DNA of 37,850 nucleotides from a virus, in UHGV virus genome UHGV-0195539; one strand, 5' to 3'. A program made the translations under genes and the position numbers. The notes under the pieces were generated by a model. That model was not told the origin of the DNA and ran no database searches. It saw only the letters and a list, made by a program, of their open reading frames with translations. Shown here in pieces: positions 13,290 to 35,088 of this stretch. The first letter of the stretch is position 1, and the number at the start of each line of letters is the position of its first letter.

Positions 13290-15335
13290 TTATGCGGCGT
13301 TGCTGTTATTGATATCCACCGTCACATACTCAATCAGCACGGGGTAGGTGTCCTTGTTACTGGTGATATCCGTGATCAGCAGTTTGTCGTTATCCAGTCC
13401 TGCCGCCGGGCATTTCGCCAGATTAAAGGCCGCCTGGGTCTGACCGTTGATGACCGGTGTCACGCTGATGCTGTTATTTCCGGCAAACCGGAACACCACG
13501 TTGTGCCAGTTATGATTAAATGCCCCGAAGGTTCCCAGTTTTGCATTCTGTTGTTTGTGCTGCATCAGATTCAGGTTTGCGCTGTCGCTCTGGATGAAGA
13601 AGGCGGCCAGCATATCGTTTCCTGCGCTGCCTTCCAGAACAACGTTTTCAGGTAGCTGAGAAACCGGCCAGTGCAGAGCCATGGCGAAGCGGTTTTCTGC
13701 CAGCTGAACACCTTCCGGGATTTTGAAACGAAAGGCAATTTCCCCGCCTTTCTGAAGTAATTCAGCTGCTTTACTTGCAGGCACATCGTGGGCGATTTTC
13801 CAGGCTGTTTGTTGCCCCTGGACTTTTTCCACTCGCATGGCTTTACCGCTCTGAGCAGCAGAGTCATTTACGACGGAGGCTTTTCCATCTGCCCCTGTCC
13901 AGCCCTGTTCTTTCAGTTTCCCTTCCTGTGCGTCTGCGCGATAAGCGACGGCCGTTGTTCTTGCCGGTGATGACTGCGTACCTGCGCCCGGCTGAGGTGC
14001 AGGTGTGTAGGGCTGCGGGCTTTCCGTGGTGGTGCTGTCTGAACCGGCCGTGGCGGGAGGTACTGCGACCACGCTGAACGGTGCGGGTGCACCTTTCAGG
14101 AAGGCGACGGTCTTCCCGGCATGCATCAGGATCGCCGTTGCCAGGCGGTCAGAAATAATGCCGCGGCGGGCCCATGAACTGAAATGCGTGGCGCGATCTG
14201 AAGAGGTCCAGTTTCCGTTACTACGGGATGCAGCACCGTAATAACCGGCTTCTGCCAGGTCAGGATCTTCGGCAGGCAGGTTTGTTGGCGTGTTAGCACC
14301 TTTCTCATCGGTCATCAGGGGCACAAAATAAATTTTTTGCGCTTCTTTGTTCTGATATGCACCGTAAACCACCGGGTACTGAGAGGTATATTGTTGTTTC
14401 CAGATATAGGTGGTATCGCCGCAAATCCAGGGAACAAGTGATGCGTTGCCTCCGGTGCACTGTGCAGCATATGCGCTGAGATCGGCGCGGAACTGATTCA
14501 CCATGTTCAGGAATAATTGCGGGTGCTGTGCGTATGTTGCTGATTTCAGATCAAACTCTCCCAGCATCCAGACCACGGATAACAGGACGTTTTTGGGGTT
14601 TTTATCCAGCGCGGCTTTTGTACGGGTAAGCAGATCGTTATACAGCGGTTTGCCGACGCCCCACAGGGATGATTCGGCCGTTGCTCCTGAAGATTCACTG
14701 AATGCCCCCTCAGCGCCGGAAGTAAGCGCTGACCCTCCACGACAGCAAGGTACCAGGAGGATCCCTGCATTTTTCGGGATAAACGCCAGTAATTTTTTGG
14801 CAATATGTAAACCCTGTCCGACGCAGCCATACTGACCTTTTGACAGATCGGCGTTCGGATGATTAAGGCTGCTCATATCCTGTACATCATGGAGACAGTG
14901 ATCTGCCGGAATAATATCGTTATAGGTACATGCAGCGCCGCCCGGTGTTACCGTACTGCGACGCGCTAACTGTTTAATTCGTGGATCAGGACTGTCGAAT
15001 GTATCGGGTAATGGCAGCCCCTCACCGTATGCCATGCCATTGGACTGACCAGCCAGTGGCACCACATAATAAAACTCTGGCTCAGTTGTGTGTCCAGTGT
15101 CGTATCCGTCGGTAGTGCCCGGTACGGGGTTTTCCTCGCCTTTTGGTACCGGAATGGCTGATGGCAGGTCTCTGTCAGTGACCAGTGCCTGCATCAGGTA
15201 AAATGGTGCTCCCGGCTCTGATGCTGAGACAGGTCCCCCAAGAAGTCCCCATCCTTCCCTGAGCATGGGCGCAAGTTTTTCGGCAAGTTCCTTGTTCGTC
15301 ATTGCCGTCACAAGCTGATAATGTTTCGGTACCAT
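13290..15335 (-). CDS. NanS-p-like sialate O-acetylesterase (SASA/SGNH-type esterase domain) with N- and C-terminal extensions
   Basis: GQSNG motif (PLAGQSNGMAYGEG) characteristic of SASA 9-O-acetylesterases; N-terminal YQLVTAMT...GW region resembles the DUF1737 domain of Stx-phage NanS-p. Start moved to second Met for GGAG SD. Confidence 0.7.
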   Translation of the reverse strand: MVPKHYQLVTAMTNKELAEKLAPMLREGWGLLGGPVSASEPGAPFYLMQALVTDRDLPSAIPVPKGEENPVPGTTDGYDTGHTTEPEFYYVVPLAGQSNGMAYGEGLPLPDTFDSPDPRIKQLARRSTVTPGGAACTYNDIIPADHCLHDVQDMSSLNHPNADLSKGQYGCVGQGLHIAKKLLAFIPKNAGILLVPCCRGGSALTSGAEGAFSESSGATAESSLWGVGKPLYNDLLTRTKAALDKNPKNVLLSVVWMLGEFDLKSATYAQHPQLFLNMVNQFRADLSAYAAQCTGGNASLVPWICGDTTYIWKQQYTSQYPVVYGAYQNKEAQKIYFVPLMTDEKGANTPTNLPAEDPDLAEAGYYGAASRSNGNWTSSDRATHFSSWARRGIISDRLATAILMHAGKTVAFLKGAPAPFSVVAVPPATAGSDSTTTESPQPYTPAPQPGAGTQSSPARTTAVAYRADAQEGKLKEQGWTGADGKASVVNDSAAQSGKAMRVEKVQGQQTAWKIAHDVPASKAAELLQKGGEIAFRFKIPEGVQLAENRFAMALHWPVSQLPENVVLEGSAGNDMLAAFFIQSDSANLNLMQHKQQNAKLGTFGAFNHNWHNVVFRFAGNNSISVTPVINGQTQAAFNLAKCPAAGLDNDKLLITDITSNKDTYPVLIEYVTVDINNSNAA

Positions 15336-15345
15336 AGTGACTCCG

Positions 15346-15621
15346 TTATTTTTCATGAGTGTTCATTCGTGCTGTCCGCTGCCGCTCCAGCCCGGCAATG
15401 GCGGCTTTATCGGCATTACAACTGTCCAGGGCATCTACCAGTCGGTCTCCCCAGTCAGCCACATCAGCCCATATCATGTGTTGCGGCAGCACCGGTACCG
15501 GTGTCTGTCTGGTCAGACTTTCCGGCACGCTCCCGCAAATGACGCCGGTTTTCAGCGGCGCTGGCGTGTTGTTGCAGGCTGTCAGCAACATCAGCAGGGG
15601 GAGAAGTGCGTGCGCACTCAT
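15346..15621 (-). CDS. o-spanin (Rz1/LysC-like outer-membrane lipoprotein)
   Basis: Signal peptide with lipobox LTAC (MSAHALLPLLMLLTAC); reading frame overlaps the 3' end of the i-spanin gene and extends past it. Confidence 0.6.
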   Translation of the reverse strand: MSAHALLPLLMLLTACNNTPAPLKTGVICGSVPESLTRQTPVPVLPQHMIWADVADWGDRLVDALDSCNADKAAIAGLERQRTARMNTHEK

Positions 15622-15889
15622 CCGCCTGTAAGTTTTTCCGCATCGTTTCACGTCGTTCTTCCCCTCTGGCTGCACGCTCCTGATCTTCGCGCCGGATAGC
15701 GGCCAGCGCTGACTGTGTCTCCGCCGTGGCCTTAAGCAACTCCCGGACGGTCGTATTGCTCTCTTTCACGGCTTTTTCCAGCGCTTCATAACGGGTGCTC
15801 TCCTGACCTGAGCGATAGGCCCGGATGACCACCATTGCCTGCAGCGAAATGGTCAGCAGCAGCGCACAAAGGATAATGTTCAGTTTCAT
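15464..15889 (-). CDS. i-spanin (Rz/LysB-like)
   Basis: N-terminal transmembrane helix then charged coiled-coil region; ATGA overlap with the endolysin stop. Confidence 0.7.
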   Translation of the reverse strand: MKLNIILCALLLTISLQAMVVIRAYRSGQESTRYEALEKAVKESNTTVRELLKATAETQSALAAIRREDQERAARGEERRETMRKNLQADECARTSPPADVADSLQQHASAAENRRHLRERAGKSDQTDTGTGAAATHDMG

Positions 15890-16437
15890 GGCTGCGCTCC
15901 CGCGTCTTTCAGGCACCAGTTCTTAAAATCATTCCGGCGGTTAACCAGTCCCTGCGTGCGCGTTCCGCCACTGTTCACAAAATCTGTCAGCCGGTAACAC
16001 ATGAGGCGCCATTGCCGTGTCTGCGCGTGTTTCCAGATGGTGGTGCGTTGCGGCGTGCCGTTTTTGTTTTTAAACCACATCAGATTCCGGCAGCCCAGGT
16101 TAAAGGCGGCGTCCGTCATGGCTTCGAATGCAGACTGCGGCATCTGCTGCCCCCTGAAATTCTGTGTGATGCAGTTCTCAGCGCGGCGCATATCGTTGAT
16201 CCACCGCCCGGCCACTTCCTCCTGTGTGTACAGGCGGTTTTCCACGTTACCGGTGGATCCGCATCCGACCGTACCGACCCCCACCAGATCACGGTAGGGT
16301 CGGGCCCGGCACTCCTCCCATGTGGCAATTTTGATTTGTGCCTCGCGGGAGGTTCTCAGTTCTCCGGGAGCCAGGGAGATCCCCAGCGCCACAATGGCGG
16401 CCACGGCGTAACGCTTAGGTCCGGCCATCGTGCTCAT
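15886..16437 (-). CDS. endolysin, T4-lysozyme-like (GH24), probable SAR type
   Basis: Catalytic-region motif TWEECRARPYRD...GVGTVGCG (Glu/Asp/Thr triad pattern); Ala/Gly-rich weakly hydrophobic N-terminus (AVAAIVALGISLAPG) typical of a SAR anchor. Confidence 0.85.
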   Translation of the reverse strand: MSTMAGPKRYAVAAIVALGISLAPGELRTSREAQIKIATWEECRARPYRDLVGVGTVGCGSTGNVENRLYTQEEVAGRWINDMRRAENCITQNFRGQQMPQSAFEAMTDAAFNLGCRNLMWFKNKNGTPQRTTIWKHAQTRQWRLMCYRLTDFVNSGGTRTQGLVNRRNDFKNWCLKDAGAQP

Positions 16438-16699
16438 CCTGCTTCAGAAGCATCATTGCCCGGCGCTCTGCGTCGTTCAGCTCCCTTCCTTCTGACTGCA
16501 TAAGGATTTTTTCAATCAGTTCGTTGCGCCTTGCCTGGGCGATCTCCATCCTGCGGCGGTGAAGCCAGGCACGAAGCAGTGACAGCGTTCCCAGCACAAA
16601 ACCGGCCACGGCAATTTTTTCGCTCAGCGTCATCACGCCGATACCGGCTGTCGTCACTGACGCCCAGAACGTGATGTGATCACAAAGCCGCTGAAACAT
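16415..16699 (-). CDS. holin, two-TMD (pinholin-like)
   Basis: Two hydrophobic helices then a basic C-terminus; GGGGGTG SD; first gene of the lysis cassette upstream of the SAR endolysin. Confidence 0.65.
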   Translation of the reverse strand: MFQRLCDHITFWASVTTAGIGVMTLSEKIAVAGFVLGTLSLLRAWLHRRRMEIAQARRNELIEKILMQSEGRELNDAERRAMMLLKQDEHDGRT

Positions 16700-16701
16700 T
16701 C

Positions 16702-16902
16702 TCACCCCCACAACTGGATCATTTCACGCCGGGTCTGCCCCTGCAGCTCCGGCAGCTCCACTTCCTGTCCGGCATGCAGAAACATGACGGCTGAAATCCC
16801 CGGATTGGCGGCCAGTACCGCCTCAGTCACCCCCTGCGTGGTGCCGTAATGGCGCTGACAGAGTAAATCGACGGTGTCACCGTCCAGAGCCATTACTTTC
16901 AT
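16702..16902 (-). CDS. X: tail protein X (LysM-like)
   Basis: MKVMALDGDTVDLLCQRHYG...AANPG motif matches P2 gpX. Confidence 0.8.
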   Translation of the reverse strand: MKVMALDGDTVDLLCQRHYGTTQGVTEAVLAANPGISAVMFLHAGQEVELPELQGQTRREMIQLWG

Positions 16903-29231: not shown

Positions 29232-29459
29232 TTAGTGGTGGTGTTGCTGGTTGATAAGGTCCTGCAGCTCCGCGAGATCATCCGCCAGGTAGCTGAAAAC
29301 AGCGGCACAGTAACGGTTTGACAGAGCGTGAGTGCGCTCATGCAGCATGTTGATATGCATGATTTGCGCGACGCGTGTTGCGCGGAAAAGTCTGCGGTTG
29401 ATTTCAGTCTGGATGTGACGACGCTCAGCGCGGGCGCGCTGTTGCTTGCGGTTTGCCAT
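29232..29459 (-). CDS. hypothetical small basic protein (75 aa)
   Basis: GAAGAGG SD; Arg-rich N-terminus. Confidence 0.45.
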   Translation of the reverse strand: MANRKQQRARAERRHIQTEINRRLFRATRVAQIMHINMLHERTHALSNRYCAAVFSYLADDLAELQDLINQQHHH

Positions 29460-29842
29460 GGTGTGGCCTCTTCGTTTGTGAATTTTGAAAACTCACCAAC
29501 CAGAGGTGGAAAACTCAGGGTGGCGAGACGTACAGGGTTTCCACAACCGGCAAACGAAGAAACCGGCCCGACCGAAGTCGGCCCTGTACGCCCCGCCATA
29601 ATTCTGACGCGAAAAAGACGTGGCGATACAGTACGCACAAAAAAACCGCTGGCGCGGCTGTGCGCTTCGTTTGTCAGCGGGGTGGAAATCCCGGCACCCG
29701 TTTTATGAGGTGCAGCGGAAATGTAACCCGACACGACGAGCGCTGGCAAGCGGTTTTTGTGTTGCGTGCTGATGTGGTTAGAATGTGGCGAATTAATATC
29801 ACCTGGCAACTGGTGATTGTCTGCATACGCGGGGTGTTTCTG

Positions 29843-30307
29843 ATGAGTGATAAGCTCCCTTCTGATTACGACATTCTTTTTGACCTGTGGTACAGCTACT
29901 GGCTTGAACGTATTACATGTGTGTTTCACCGACGCGTTTCTGCTGCTCTGCGAATCAGCGCCTTTCTGGTTGGTGTTGCGGCGTTTGTCCTGTGTGATTT
30001 TGTTGTGTTGGTACTCTTCAGTGTGGTTCTGTTTCTGCTCTGGCAGTGCATGGCTGCCAGTTTTGAACGCAGGGCTGAAAAGGCTGAATGGCAGACAGTC
30101 AGTTACCAGCGCCTTATCAGTCAGCGCCATGTGATTAGTAAGGAATGCATGATTGCGCGCCTCTCCTTTGTTGAGGAAAGTGACAGTCCCATCATGGAGT
30201 GCATGATTAATCTTGCCTGGAATAAAGCCTGTGAGGCGGTTGGCAGCTCTTCGCGCAATCATGTTTCGTTCTCCGGTCGGTTACTCAGTCGCCTGTGCGG
30301 CTTCTGA
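29843..30307 (+). CDS. hypothetical membrane protein encoded antisense to the early operon
   Basis: Hydrophobic core ISAFLVGVAAFVLCDFVVLVLFSVVLFLLW; upstream TTGTGT-16 nt-TAGAAT sigma70-like promoter. Start chosen at MSDKLP; 3' end overlaps the convergent next gene. Confidence 0.4.
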   Translation: MSDKLPSDYDILFDLWYSYWLERITCVFHRRVSAALRISAFLVGVAAFVLCDFVVLVLFSVVLFLLWQCMAASFERRAEKAEWQTVSYQRLISQRHVISKECMIARLSFVEESDSPIMECMINLAWNKACEAVGSSSRNHVSFSGRLLSRLCGF

Positions 30308-31117: not shown

Positions 31118-32092
31118 TCACGGGTGAGCAGAGGTAAACATCGCGCTGTACGTTGCATCTCCCGTCGCCGGGCCGCAGTCCGGGCACCAGCCACCGCCAT
31201 GGCGACCGCAGGTGTCGCACTGCTTCAGGGTGGCGATAACTTCCATTGCGGGTTCACTGGTTCTTGCGCCAACGCTTCGTGGTGCCTGTATGCAGTTCAT
31301 CCGGTAACCCTGATAAATGCGTCTGGTTTCCGGTGTGTCGGAATTGGAGATGGTGATGCTGGTCATGCCGCCCGTTTCCTGTGAAAGGCGGTCAAGCGCT
31401 GCTCTCAGGCGAATGTGGTCGTCCTTCGTGAAGGGTTTTCCATAGGCGGTGAAATTGTCCCGGCCACTGAATGGCAGGTAAGGGGGATCGCAGTACACGC
31501 AAAGCGTGTTACCCATGCTGAACAGGTGGCTGGCACAGCTCAGCGTTTTTCGAAAATCGCCATGAACAAGCAGTGTTCGGGTGCTGTTTGCCTTGTCTGC
31601 AAATGCGCGGATCTCCCGCTCAGGAAAATAAGGTTTGCTGTAGCTGCCGAAAGGCACGTTAAAATCGCCTTTTCCATTCACGCGGAACAGGCCGTTAAAA
31701 CAGTGTCGGTTGAGGTACAAAAACATGGCGGCCAGTCGCAGTTTCCGACGGTCGCTTATTCCCGTGCTCAGGAATGCATGATTCTCTGCATTAAAGGTGT
31801 TGCGGATGGCGAGATAGTCAGCCCTGTTGTTATGTTCCAGGAACAGGTCTTTTGCCTCATCGATCAGGCTGTCGGTGTTGTCCCGTGCTGCCCGCCAGAA
31901 ATTAATCAGCGCACCGTTGGAATCTCCAAGGATGCAGCGGCTGTAACGGGTGTTCATGAATACCGATGCGCCACCCACGAACGGCTCAACCAGGCAGTCA
32001 GCTTCTGGCAGGTGCGCCTTCAGTGTGTCCATGATGCGGTTTTTTCCGCCCACCCATTTCAGCGGTGTGCCGGATAACAGTTTTTCGCTCAT
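31118..32092 (-). CDS. dam: DNA adenine methyltransferase (Dam-like) with C-terminal Cys-rich zinc-ribbon-like tail
   Basis: DPPY catalytic motif (VYCDPPY) and GG...VFMN SAM-binding region; C-terminal CDTCGRHGGGWCPDCG. Confidence 0.85.
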   Translation of the reverse strand: MSEKLLSGTPLKWVGGKNRIMDTLKAHLPEADCLVEPFVGGASVFMNTRYSRCILGDSNGALINFWRAARDNTDSLIDEAKDLFLEHNNRADYLAIRNTFNAENHAFLSTGISDRRKLRLAAMFLYLNRHCFNGLFRVNGKGDFNVPFGSYSKPYFPEREIRAFADKANSTRTLLVHGDFRKTLSCASHLFSMGNTLCVYCDPPYLPFSGRDNFTAYGKPFTKDDHIRLRAALDRLSQETGGMTSITISNSDTPETRRIYQGYRMNCIQAPRSVGARTSEPAMEVIATLKQCDTCGRHGGGWCPDCGPATGDATYSAMFTSAHP

Positions 32093-32316
32093 AACGCGGC
32101 CTCTCTGTTATAGGTTTCGTGCGTTAATAAATCCCATGACTTCCCGTTGTTTTTGCTCAGTAATCGCCAGCGAAAACCGATTCTTATGACCAGGTAGTCG
32201 TGGGGCTTTATGCGTGAAAAATTCCGCGCTCCGTTGCGAAATAAGCGCAGAGACGTGCGGGCTTTTGTTTCCACGTTCAGGGGGGGGCGGCAACGCATAT
32301 TCAGGATGGCGACCAT
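32089..32316 (-). CDS. hypothetical small basic protein (75 aa), stop overlaps dam start
   Basis: GAGGTG SD; stop overlaps the dam ATG (ATGA). Confidence 0.4.
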   Translation of the reverse strand: MVAILNMRCRPPLNVETKARTSLRLFRNGARNFSRIKPHDYLVIRIGFRWRLLSKNNGKSWDLLTHETYNREAAL

Positions 32317-32325
32317 GGCTTCACC

Positions 32326-32907
32326 TCATATGTTCAGGAATGGTGTTGTGAAGCGCTGCCAGATTTCTGACACGATCTTTGCCTGGTAAATGGCGTCGCT
32401 TAGTGCGGTGTGAGCAATGGCCTCTTTTCCTGATCTGCCTGGCATTTTCCAGCCCGTTGACTCAGCCATGGCGATAAGCGGGCGCATACAGCGCTCGTTC
32501 CAGTAGCACCACGGAATGCTTTTTTCTCCGGCTGTGCGTGTTATGGCGGATTTCAGGATCGGGAAATCGAAGGATGCGCCCTTGCACCATATGGTCAGTG
32601 AATTGCCCGGGCTTTCGTCATGCATGTTGCGTGAAATGAACGCCAGAAATTCGGTCACAGCTGCAAGCTCTGTTCCCTTTGCGTTGCGCAGGCAGGCTCT
32701 GGCTTCCACGGATTGTCCGGCCCACCATACAGTGGTTGCTGCATTGACGGTTCCGCCGTTGCGTTCTGAATCCACCGGGTCGATGAATTGCTCAAACTGC
32801 TTGCCCAGCTTTCCGGTGAACGGGTCGAAAAACACCGCGCCAATTGCGAATATGACGGCATCCGGTCCGGAGCCCAGTGTTTCAGTGTCAATCATGAGGT
32901 GGTTCAT
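32326..32907 (-). CDS. 3'-5' exonuclease (DEDD/DnaQ-like)
   Basis: N-terminal MIDTETLG exo I motif and distal H...D motif. Confidence 0.75.
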   Translation of the reverse strand: MNHLMIDTETLGSGPDAVIFAIGAVFFDPFTGKLGKQFEQFIDPVDSERNGGTVNAATTVWWAGQSVEARACLRNAKGTELAAVTEFLAFISRNMHDESPGNSLTIWCKGASFDFPILKSAITRTAGEKSIPWCYWNERCMRPLIAMAESTGWKMPGRSGKEAIAHTALSDAIYQAKIVSEIWQRFTTPFLNI

Positions 32908-33137
32908 TGTGCGTTACCTTTCTGTTCACGGGTGTTCATGAGCACAGCAATTAATCGCTCAATGGCTGAGTAGATTTGTTCCGGGGATGCGTTAATTTCT
33001 TTCATCCCGTCAATCCGCTCGCGCAGTATTTCGCAGATATGCGCACGCTCGGCATTTCTTGCGGCCATGCTGATATGTGCGTGCATGTGCTCCTGTCCGG
33101 TGCTTATTTCTTTGTCAGGTGATTTAACGGTTTTCAT
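32904..33137 (-). CDS. hypothetical small protein (77 aa)
   Basis: ATGA-type overlap with the exonuclease gene. Confidence 0.45.
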   Translation of the reverse strand: MKTVKSPDKEISTGQEHMHAHISMAARNAERAHICEILRERIDGMKEINASPEQIYSAIERLIAVLMNTREQKGNAQ

Positions 33138-33234
33138 TGTTGTCTCATGAAAAAAGACAAAGGGAACCCGAAGGCATGAATGCCTTAATTAACTGTTCAT
33201 GTGTGTTCTGGTGTTATCGGAAGTTCATTTGCTG

Positions 33235-33339
33235 TTACAGATTTAAATATTGAGTAAGCAGCTTCACCACGAAATAAGAAACAACGAATGACGCCAGTAA
33301 TATCACCCATGACGCGATAATGATTAATGTTGAACTCAT
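33235..33339 (-). CDS. predicted 34-aa hydrophobic peptide (MSSTLIIIASWVILLASFVVSYFVVKLLTQYLNL)
   Basis: ATG overlaps the stop of the upstream 79-aa gene (ATGA); uninterrupted 34 codons; palindrome AAGGCAT-GA-ATGCCTT lies downstream. Not in ORF track (too short). Confidence 0.3.
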   Translation of the reverse strand: MSSTLIIIASWVILLASFVVSYFVVKLLTQYLNL

Positions 33340-33575
33340 ACGACCGCCAGATTGTAGGGCTGGATGTACCCATCAATATCCATCTGGCTGATGAGCTCGT
33401 TTATTTCGGTAAGCGCCTCACTGTCGTCAGCGCAGAATGCTGCCCGTTGTAACCCGCTGAGGCCCAGTATCAGGGAGTTGTCGGCGGCAGTTTTATTTTC
33501 TCCGTTTGTTTTTGCCAGTGAAAAACTGTGGCGCTCAAGGAGCAAATTCACTAATTGTTTGTAGTGGTTGTTCAT
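33336..33575 (-). CDS. hypothetical small acidic protein (79 aa)
   Basis: ORF in an AT-rich stretch; no recognisable family. Confidence 0.45.
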   Translation of the reverse strand: MNNHYKQLVNLLLERHSFSLAKTNGENKTAADNSLILGLSGLQRAAFCADDSEALTEINELISQMDIDGYIQPYNLAVV

Positions 33576-35044: not shown

Positions 35045-35068
35045 AAAGATACTCGCACGAGTATCTTT
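35045..35068. promoter_or_regulatory. perfect 24-bp palindromic operator candidate in the C/cox switch region
   Basis: AAAGATACTCG-CA-CGAGTATCTTT read directly; overlaps a TATAAA -10-like element. Confidence 0.5.
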
Positions 35069-35088
35069 CGCGAGAGGTTAATACTCAA

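Follow-up and report, generated by a model that had tools for sequence, protein, structure and literature searches.

In the early operon of a P2-like Escherichia prophage, a 34-codon frame whose start codon overlaps the stop codon of a DUF4754 gene is very probably a real protein-coding gene coupled to its upstream neighbor through an ATGA overlap, as judged by comparison with related loci. Of the known alleles in a family of single-pass membrane microproteins of 34 to 48 amino acids (aa), typified by gp07 of phage P88, it appears to be the most divergent. As an overall explanation, we favor, with somewhat better than even confidence, a DUF4754-microprotein pair that acts early in the lytic cycle at the inner membrane to modulate the host; the functional part of this explanation, namely the early-lytic host-modulating role argued from analogy, is put forward tentatively and falls short of being probable. 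The window, that is, the whole stretch of 37,850 nucleotides that was analysed (UHGV virus genome UHGV-0195539), carries every element of the reported locus on its minus strand, as determined by reading of the sequence and from the list of open reading frames (ORFs):

33336-33575, minus strand: DUF4754 gene (79-aa ORF; Pfam PF15946, phrog_2549; RefSeq name 'DUF4754 family protein').
33235-33339, minus strand: putative gene of a 34-aa single-pass membrane microprotein (ORF; positional homolog opened by the same ATGA in 8 DUF4754 lineages; RefSeq-unannotated for the window DNA).
33336-33339, minus strand: ATGA stop/start overlap, a predicted termination-reinitiation coupling signal (sequence reading; same ATGA in all lineages examined).
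33344-33348, minus strand: weak Shine-Dalgarno-like GGCGG, 5-9 nt upstream of the peptide ATG and within the last DUF4754 codons.
33150-33186, minus strand: hairpin AAGGCAT-TC-ATGCCTT, with CGGGTTCCC and then a T-rich run behind it (inverted repeat; compared with the 186 and P2 terminators).

The original prediction had described an acidic 79-aa ORF ending in GTATGA, whose embedded ATG opens a 34-codon frame, and this arrangement is indeed present. The DUF4754 gene ends with GTC GTA TGA, the ATG at 33339-33337 starts the small frame, and the junction reads GTATGAG. The deduced product, MSSTLIIIASWVILLASFVVSYFVVKLLTQYLNL, was also correctly pictured as being almost wholly one transmembrane (TM) helix, since it consists of a single hydrophobic stretch of about 21 residues with a GRAVY of 1.67; its top 19-residue hydropathy window reaches 2.47. 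The description of the peptide as unannotated holds for the window allele and fails for the family. None of the four RefSeq E. coli genomes that harbor the window DNA at at least 99.7% identity carries an annotation of the frame, and nr lists the identical 34-aa peptide, from a Caudoviricetes MAG, under the name 'hypothetical protein' (P0122). Annotated relatives, on the other hand, include P88 gp07 ('membrane protein', YP_009113050.1) and the PGAP proteins WP_000021704.1 and, in O157:H7 EDL933, WP_000021655.1. Within the window, the peptide ORF ranks second in hydrophobicity among the 263 ATG-initiated ORFs of at least 30 aa, two more junctions of the operon (32904-32907 and 32089-32092) also show an ATGA overlap, and five inverted repeats with 7-nt arms lie within the same 500 bases. 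By themselves, hydrophobicity, ATGA and palindrome do not exceed chance at this locus, and their significance comes from related loci. An overlapping 59-aa frame (33197-33376, minus strand) and the plus-strand ORFs were dropped, the non-peptide frames having stops in relatives and no coding signature.

The loci compared were those of phages P88, 520873 and Shae_phiSM, of E. coli S1-CAM-02-A, and of metagenome or genome contigs for the representatives P0002, P0008, P0010, P0012 and P0013. Their DUF4754 proteins are 32-49% identical to that of the window and 24-59% identical to one another. At this degree of divergence, the ATGA-embedded stop codon of DUF4754 opens a hydrophobic ORF in 8 of 8 distinct lineages, the ORF comprising 34, 37, 41, 48 or 77 codons, and the position of the Shine-Dalgarno-like sequence is occupied in the other lineages by GGAGG, AGGAG, AGGGG or GGGGAA. 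A blastn search of complete E. coli genomes recovered DNA related to the peptide gene in 1390 of 5426, the DUF4754 part being mostly not found; PGAP calls the peptide homologs in most genomes, and their annotation is usually 'hypothetical protein'.

Pairwise comparison of the P88 peptide gene with those of two other loci gave a pS of 0.72 and a pN of 0.19 (L005), and a pS of 0.75 and a pN of 0.17 (L007), so that P88-type alleles appear to be near saturation at synonymous sites with little non-synonymous change. Across nine P88-type sequences, the peptide frame contains 0 stops and shows a pN/pS of 0.35, whereas the other two frames contain 30 and 7 stops, with pN/pS values of 0.77 and 2.47, respectively; the variable columns are distributed as 19/7/24 over the three codon positions. 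These figures point to purifying selection on the P88-type peptide frame. The peptide also changes more slowly than DUF4754, whose pN between P88 and L005 amounts to 0.46. On the window allele, selection is not measurable directly because only near-identical copies exist: in L014, the only near relative with available DNA, the 105 nt of the peptide gene are 100% identical. Megablast and tblastn searches of the phage collection with the region and the peptide returned no match.

The retention of the ATGA and of the TM character in 8 lineages, together with the absence of the coding signature from the other two frames, argues for the 34-codon frame being a genuine gene. One may still propose that the hydrophobic frame is an untranslated by-product of AT-rich intergenic sequence, given that it is second and no more in the hydrophobicity ranking of the window, that PGAP makes no call of it, and that its Shine-Dalgarno-like sequence is weak. 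Such a chance origin can be given next to no weight for the window frame, and for the family it is already refuted, as frame, ATGA start and TM character are kept across the 8 lineages, the coding signature is confined to one frame, and PGAP does call the homologs in most genomes.

Membership of the window allele in this family was assessed separately. The window peptide is only 23-33% identical to P88-type peptides, but M1, S2, S10 and W11 are invariant across the window peptide and the other members of the family, position 26 is always basic, and positions 17 and 21 are always small. It thus displays the N-terminal motif MS..SW, small residues 7 and 11 positions on from the Ser, and a K/R at the helix end, and the window junction has the ATGA start of the P88 gp07-type microprotein. 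A 4-residue N-terminal insertion is common only to the window peptide and the L006 form. Against a profile built from P88-type sequences only, the window peptide scored 8.3 bits, a weak match reached by 27 of 5000 composition-preserving shuffles; the match to the L006 form, reached by 7 of 5000 shuffles, is also weak. The E-value of 3.5e-5 obtained in a profile search is circular, as the query alignment included the peptide. These scores lend weak but real support to a homology of the window peptide to the P88 gp07-type family, on top of the identical position and coupling. A side observation concerns the adjacent DNA: positions 33104-33217 (the hairpin region and the start of a 77-aa gene) are about 86% identical in about 20 other E. 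coli prophages that carry a different upstream module. Conserved flanks around differing modules suggest that the DUF4754-peptide cassette of the window is a divergent allele set.

The proposal that the two genes form a two-component module was strengthened by the comparison. Besides the ATGA coupling kept in the 8 diverged lineages, searches starting from the peptide side (clusters P0029 and P0074) placed DUF4754 directly upstream, with the 4-nt overlap, in 10 of 10 places among the matches listed; cluster P0029 is listed in 3085 blocks of the collection. The genes that flank the pair on both sides vary among these 10 places. In the loci examined, neither a peptide without DUF4754 nor a DUF4754 without a coupled membrane ORF was seen. 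In the P0010 lineage (L008:2276-2509 and L009:2743-2976), the ATGA-coupled ORF encodes a 77-aa protein with two TM segments. No similarity between this protein and the usual microprotein was detectable, an equal or better score being reached by 1714 of 2000 shuffles; a different membrane protein occupies the same coupled slot. The two genes of the pair can also have separate histories. Between L005 and L007, the DUF4754 proteins are 29% identical, whereas the peptide genes are 93% identical, with a peptide pS of 0.04, a contrast that suggests a recombination joint at the ATGA junction or close by. Reshuffling of DUF4754 and peptide alleles argues against an allele-specific contact between both products. 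Several of these lineages (L005:2381-2476, also L012/L013 and L007), but not the window, carry a second hydrophobic ORF of 31-33 aa, MKNVKAILTIATVWVIFQVSALIWLALKIWE, which in some lineages begins 12 nt past the stop of the 41-aa peptide; in the database protein P0017 (77 aa), the 41-aa peptide and this second small hydrophobic peptide are fused in frame.

The DUF4754 protein itself is acidic (pI 4.63; net charge -5.3). It matches Pfam DUF4754 (PF15946) over residues 1-77 of 79 with 48.1 bits, thereby passing the gathering threshold (cut-off 27), and phrog_2549 with an E-value of 1.8e-18. The AlphaFold2 model (mean pLDDT 94.4; helices at residues 3-22, 28-48 and 52-67) confidently predicts a three-helix bundle, which would be cytoplasmic and ends in a conserved C-terminal tail, G..I.PYNL. 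Fold searches with the protein found no informative relative, and a scan of viral contigs with the window DUF4754 gave no confirmed relative. Longer DUF4754 database entries (104-128 aa) were considered as natural fusions with the peptide and rejected, since they result from frameshift or read-through into a different frame.

As to the genomic context, the window DNA occurs in the four complete E. coli chromosomes mentioned above. In NZ_AP045173.1, it lies within a P2-like prophage integrated beside dmsA, with the gene order integrase, HTH repressor, cox-like regulator, hypothetical, DUF4761, hypothetical and DUF4754, followed by a 198-bp unannotated gap, a 77-aa hypothetical, a 3'-5' exonuclease, a ParE-like gene, a Dam methylase, further genes and gpA. 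The first half of the 198-bp gap is the 34-codon frame. From cox to gpA (replication endonuclease), the genes are tightly packed on one strand, the distance from the DUF4754 gene to the gene upstream being only 24 nt. A perfect 10-nt inverted repeat, AAGATACTCG-tg-CGAGTATCTT (35046-35067), is found between the repressor and cox-like genes and is overlapped by a promoter-like site on the minus strand, TTGAGT-17-GATACT, the whole spanning 35046-35088. This site is missed by the consensus promoter scan (8 of 12 matches), and the simple promoter scan performed at chance level; we read 35046-35088 as probably being an operator with the early promoter. The pair, which follows cox and precedes both the first hairpin/terminator and the replication genes, would thus belong to an early lytic operon under repressor control, of the kind found in P2 and 186, its early-only expression being suggested by gene order. 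Since it is absent from P2 and 186, it is non-essential; in P2-like Escherichia prophages (Peduoviridae, P88/Xuanwuvirus-type), it forms an accessory module of the early operon.

The palindrome noted after the peptide gene is present, as a 7+7 inverted repeat (AAGGCAT-GA-ATGCCTT, 33171-33186) that begins 49 nt past the peptide stop codon, but it stands apart from the protein pair and sits where 186 and P2 have an annotated terminator. According to the annotation of 186, apl is followed by cII, fil and dhr, then by the terminator tR1, a DUF2732 gene and an exonuclease gene; in the P2 annotation, a putative terminator separates gene B from orf80. Direct comparison showed a layout common to the window palindrome, 186 tR1 and the P2 putative terminator, namely TTAATTAA, a hairpin, GGGnTTC and a T run, and the position corresponds to the tR1 type, where the first early gene block ends and ahead of the orf80/exonuclease block. 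Hairpins of different sequence occur at the same position in other lineages (TCCGC/GCGGA, TCCGT/ACGGA and TCACTT/AAGTGA), with fold z-scores of -2.5 to -4.2; the fold of the window hairpin is weak (z -0.68), and the case for a conserved hairpin is made from differing complementary stems at one position together with the per-lineage fold z-scores. The consensus terminator scan found no intrinsic (rho-independent) terminator at the palindrome, where the T run begins 9 nt past the stem. By analogy, the palindrome would be a tR1-type hairpin, a putative terminator that closes the promoter-proximal early segment and lies outside the protein module.

A course of events compatible with these features can be outlined. 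Upon induction or infection, the early promoter would be derepressed, and ribosomes that end translation of DUF4754 would reinitiate at the overlapping ATG, so that both products would be made together. The peptide would enter the inner membrane with its N terminus out and its C terminus in, in keeping with the positive-inside rule, the K/R at position 26 closing the helix on the cytoplasmic side and leaving a short cytoplasmic tail. On a helical wheel, the always-small residues S10, S17 and S/A21 fall at 180, 160 and 200 degrees, that is, on one face, and W11 is invariant; such a small-residue stripe may represent the type of surface used for helix-helix packing in membranes. Stripe and W11 could pack against another TM helix, provided by a conserved inner-membrane protein of the host or by further copies of the peptide, and the acidic three-helix bundle of DUF4754 could act as the cytoplasmic partner of the peptide. 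The net role would be an early-lytic, non-essential modulation of the host at the membrane, and neither lysis nor a prophage-expressed defence. That the pair represents a new class of phage early host-takeover effector, in which the microprotein, supplied through translational coupling along with its cytoplasmic three-helix partner, binds a conserved E. coli inner-membrane machine (divisome, membrane protease or transporter, for example) and inhibits or re-routes it, is a more daring suggestion that we regard as rather unlikely.

Known systems resemble the pair to different extents. The closest is P88 gp06 (DUF4754)/gp07, which has the same two-gene order, ATGA overlap and early-operon place in a P2-like phage. 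P88 gp07 and the window peptide both have a single TM helix, an MS...SW start, a small-residue stripe and a basic residue past the helix, and the PGAP homologs WP_000021655.1 and WP_000021704.1 belong with the P88 gp07 type. The window peptide differs from that type by its low identity, its 4-residue N-terminal insertion and a much shorter, near-uncharged C-terminal tail, and the window DUF4754 is 32-39% identical to the P88 type. In phage 186, fil and dhr occupy the same slot as the pair, with a cox/apl-type gene on one side and the first hairpin/terminator and exonuclease gene on the other, and they are likewise small, overlapping and non-essential; their annotations state that fil 'overexpression blocks cell division' and that dhr 'inhibits host DNA replication'. 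This likeness is positional only and does not extend to the sequences. A clear TM helix is absent from both Fil (75 aa) and Dhr (66 aa), whose best 19-residue windows score 1.26 and 0.49, respectively (vs 2.47 for the window peptide), and fil and dhr overlap by 14 nt instead of an ATGA. SidA, MgrB, AcrZ and MgtS are single-pass peptides of 29-49 aa that act on one specific membrane protein by helix packing. This mode of action is compatible with the conserved face of small residues on the window peptide, although the four peptides have no sequence relation to it and are encoded by chromosomal genes with their own regulation. Our literature search on DUF4754, the peptide sequence, 186 fil/dhr and early-operon membrane proteins of P2-like phages retrieved nothing relevant to the function of the pair.

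The peptide had originally been likened to membrane-depolarising toxins and to abortive-infection or holin-like effectors, and this reading found no support: it has no Pfam, PADLOC, NCBIfam or PHROG match, its gene is positioned in the early lytic operon, and the prophage has a separate late lysis cassette. In the toxin/antitoxin or abortive-infection version, the peptide would depolarise the membrane in the manner of Hok, TisB, Ldr or GhoT and kill infected or stressed cells, with the upstream acidic protein neutralising it. Size and hydrophobicity do fit small membrane toxins and are like those of type I toxins (Hok/Gef, Ldr, Ibs, TisB and ShoB) and of the type V system GhoS/GhoT. In ghoS-ghoT, the gene of the soluble protein precedes that of the membrane peptide, an order resembling the one seen here, and the strict co-occurrence of both genes and a ParE-like toxin-domain gene in the same operon could be quoted on the same side. 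The peptide and its variants, however, matched no toxin family of Pfam (E-value up to 0.1), no NCBIfam family (up to 1) and none of the PHROGs, and in PADLOC-DB 2.0, with E-values up to 1, no family was matched by DUF4754, by any of three peptide variants or by any of five neighbouring proteins. Two admittedly weak tests, a search of Rfam with E-values up to 10, which produced no antitoxin RNA family and only two chance matches elsewhere, and a promoter scan, which found no promoter-like site opposite the peptide, agree with this result. The 24 nt to the upstream gene leave no room for a promoter of the module's own, and a pair placed in a repressed early operon would be silent in a lysogen. 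Unlike the type I and GhoT toxins, the window peptide is encoded in a phage early operon, with predicted translational coupling to a protein of a different fold. Furthermore, the recombination of very different DUF4754 alleles with near-identical peptides is unusual for cognate toxin-antitoxin pairs, and a depolarising toxin made early would damage the phage's own replication. Taking both sides into account, we consider this version improbable, although the peptide may still be toxic when over-expressed.

Superinfection exclusion, a function that stops DNA injection by competitors, as with T4 Imm/Sp or HK97 gp15, and that would here be exerted early in the lytic cycle or by leaky expression from the prophage, deserves a similarly low standing. 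A small inner-membrane protein from a temperate phage, non-essential and absent from P2 and 186, would suit it, and a strongly conserved TM helix would suit a conserved host membrane target; yet the exclusion proteins known so far usually depend on prophage expression or on a dedicated promoter, no signal of which was seen in the promoter scan, there is no similarity to exclusion families of PADLOC or PHROG, and the strictly coupled cytoplasmic DUF4754 would be left without a role. As for a holin, antiholin or other lysis-timing peptide, the single phage-encoded TM helix with its short polar C terminus is what one would look for, but the window already possesses a late lysis cassette at 15346-16711 (holin-like, 16415-16711; lysozyme, 15886-16437; LysC, 15346-15675), about 17 kb away from the peptide gene at 33235-33339 in the early operon. 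No holin family was matched, and a length of 34 aa is below the size of the characterised holins, all of which, to our knowledge, are longer. This assignment was rejected and retains a barely perceptible probability. Early-lytic modulation of the host at the inner membrane by the DUF4754-microprotein pair remains the reading we prefer.

The P88 gp07-type family is thus already in databases, common and sometimes annotated, and the window allele is a divergent, unannotated member of it; neither a Pfam model nor a publication was found for the peptide family. If the frame is the real gene that we take it to be, the four RefSeq genomes with the window DNA miss it, and an annotation rule becomes possible, namely that DUF4754 is always followed by an ATGA-coupled membrane microprotein. 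Related peptide DNA is present in about a quarter of E. coli genomes, O157:H7 EDL933 included. The TM helix is more conserved than the partner DUF4754 and is encoded in the slot where 186 keeps its host-shutoff genes; should the peptide act on a membrane machine of the host, it would amount to a compact natural inhibitor. At present, it is one conserved small hydrophobic ORF among tens of thousands in Enterobacteriaceae, where unannotated hydrophobic intergenic small ORFs are reported to form 67,297 clusters (PMC11188072). Like those ORFs, the window frame is short and hydrophobic, belongs to a family that appears to be under purifying selection and was missed by annotation; unlike them, it overlaps an upstream stop codon, is part of a module of phage origin and counts annotated proteins among its homologs.

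Other genes of these prophages were recorded in passing. The ParE-like toxin-domain gene of the early operon (32089-32316, minus strand; PF24732, 64.9 bits) overlaps the start of the Dam methylase gene by 4 nt and has no obvious antitoxin partner. A 174-aa ORF at 29783-30307 on the plus strand (RefSeq 'hypothetical protein', no Pfam match) is in the opposite orientation within the early operon and may be a prophage-expressed moron, and a gene of the 'derepression protein' family (29232-29459, minus strand; PF25738, 30.8 bits) immediately precedes the replication genes and recurs in related prophages. The late lysis cassette is adjoined by a gene for a 688-aa protein (13290-15356, minus strand) that combines DUF1737, SASA (sialate O-acetylesterase-type) and DUF6645 domains. 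Finally, P88-type early operons (L021:3914-4944 and, in P88, L002:3693-4723) encode a Band_7/SPFH protein of 276 aa preceded by a 67-aa membrane protein, which constitute another membrane-directed accessory pair in the P88-type early operon.
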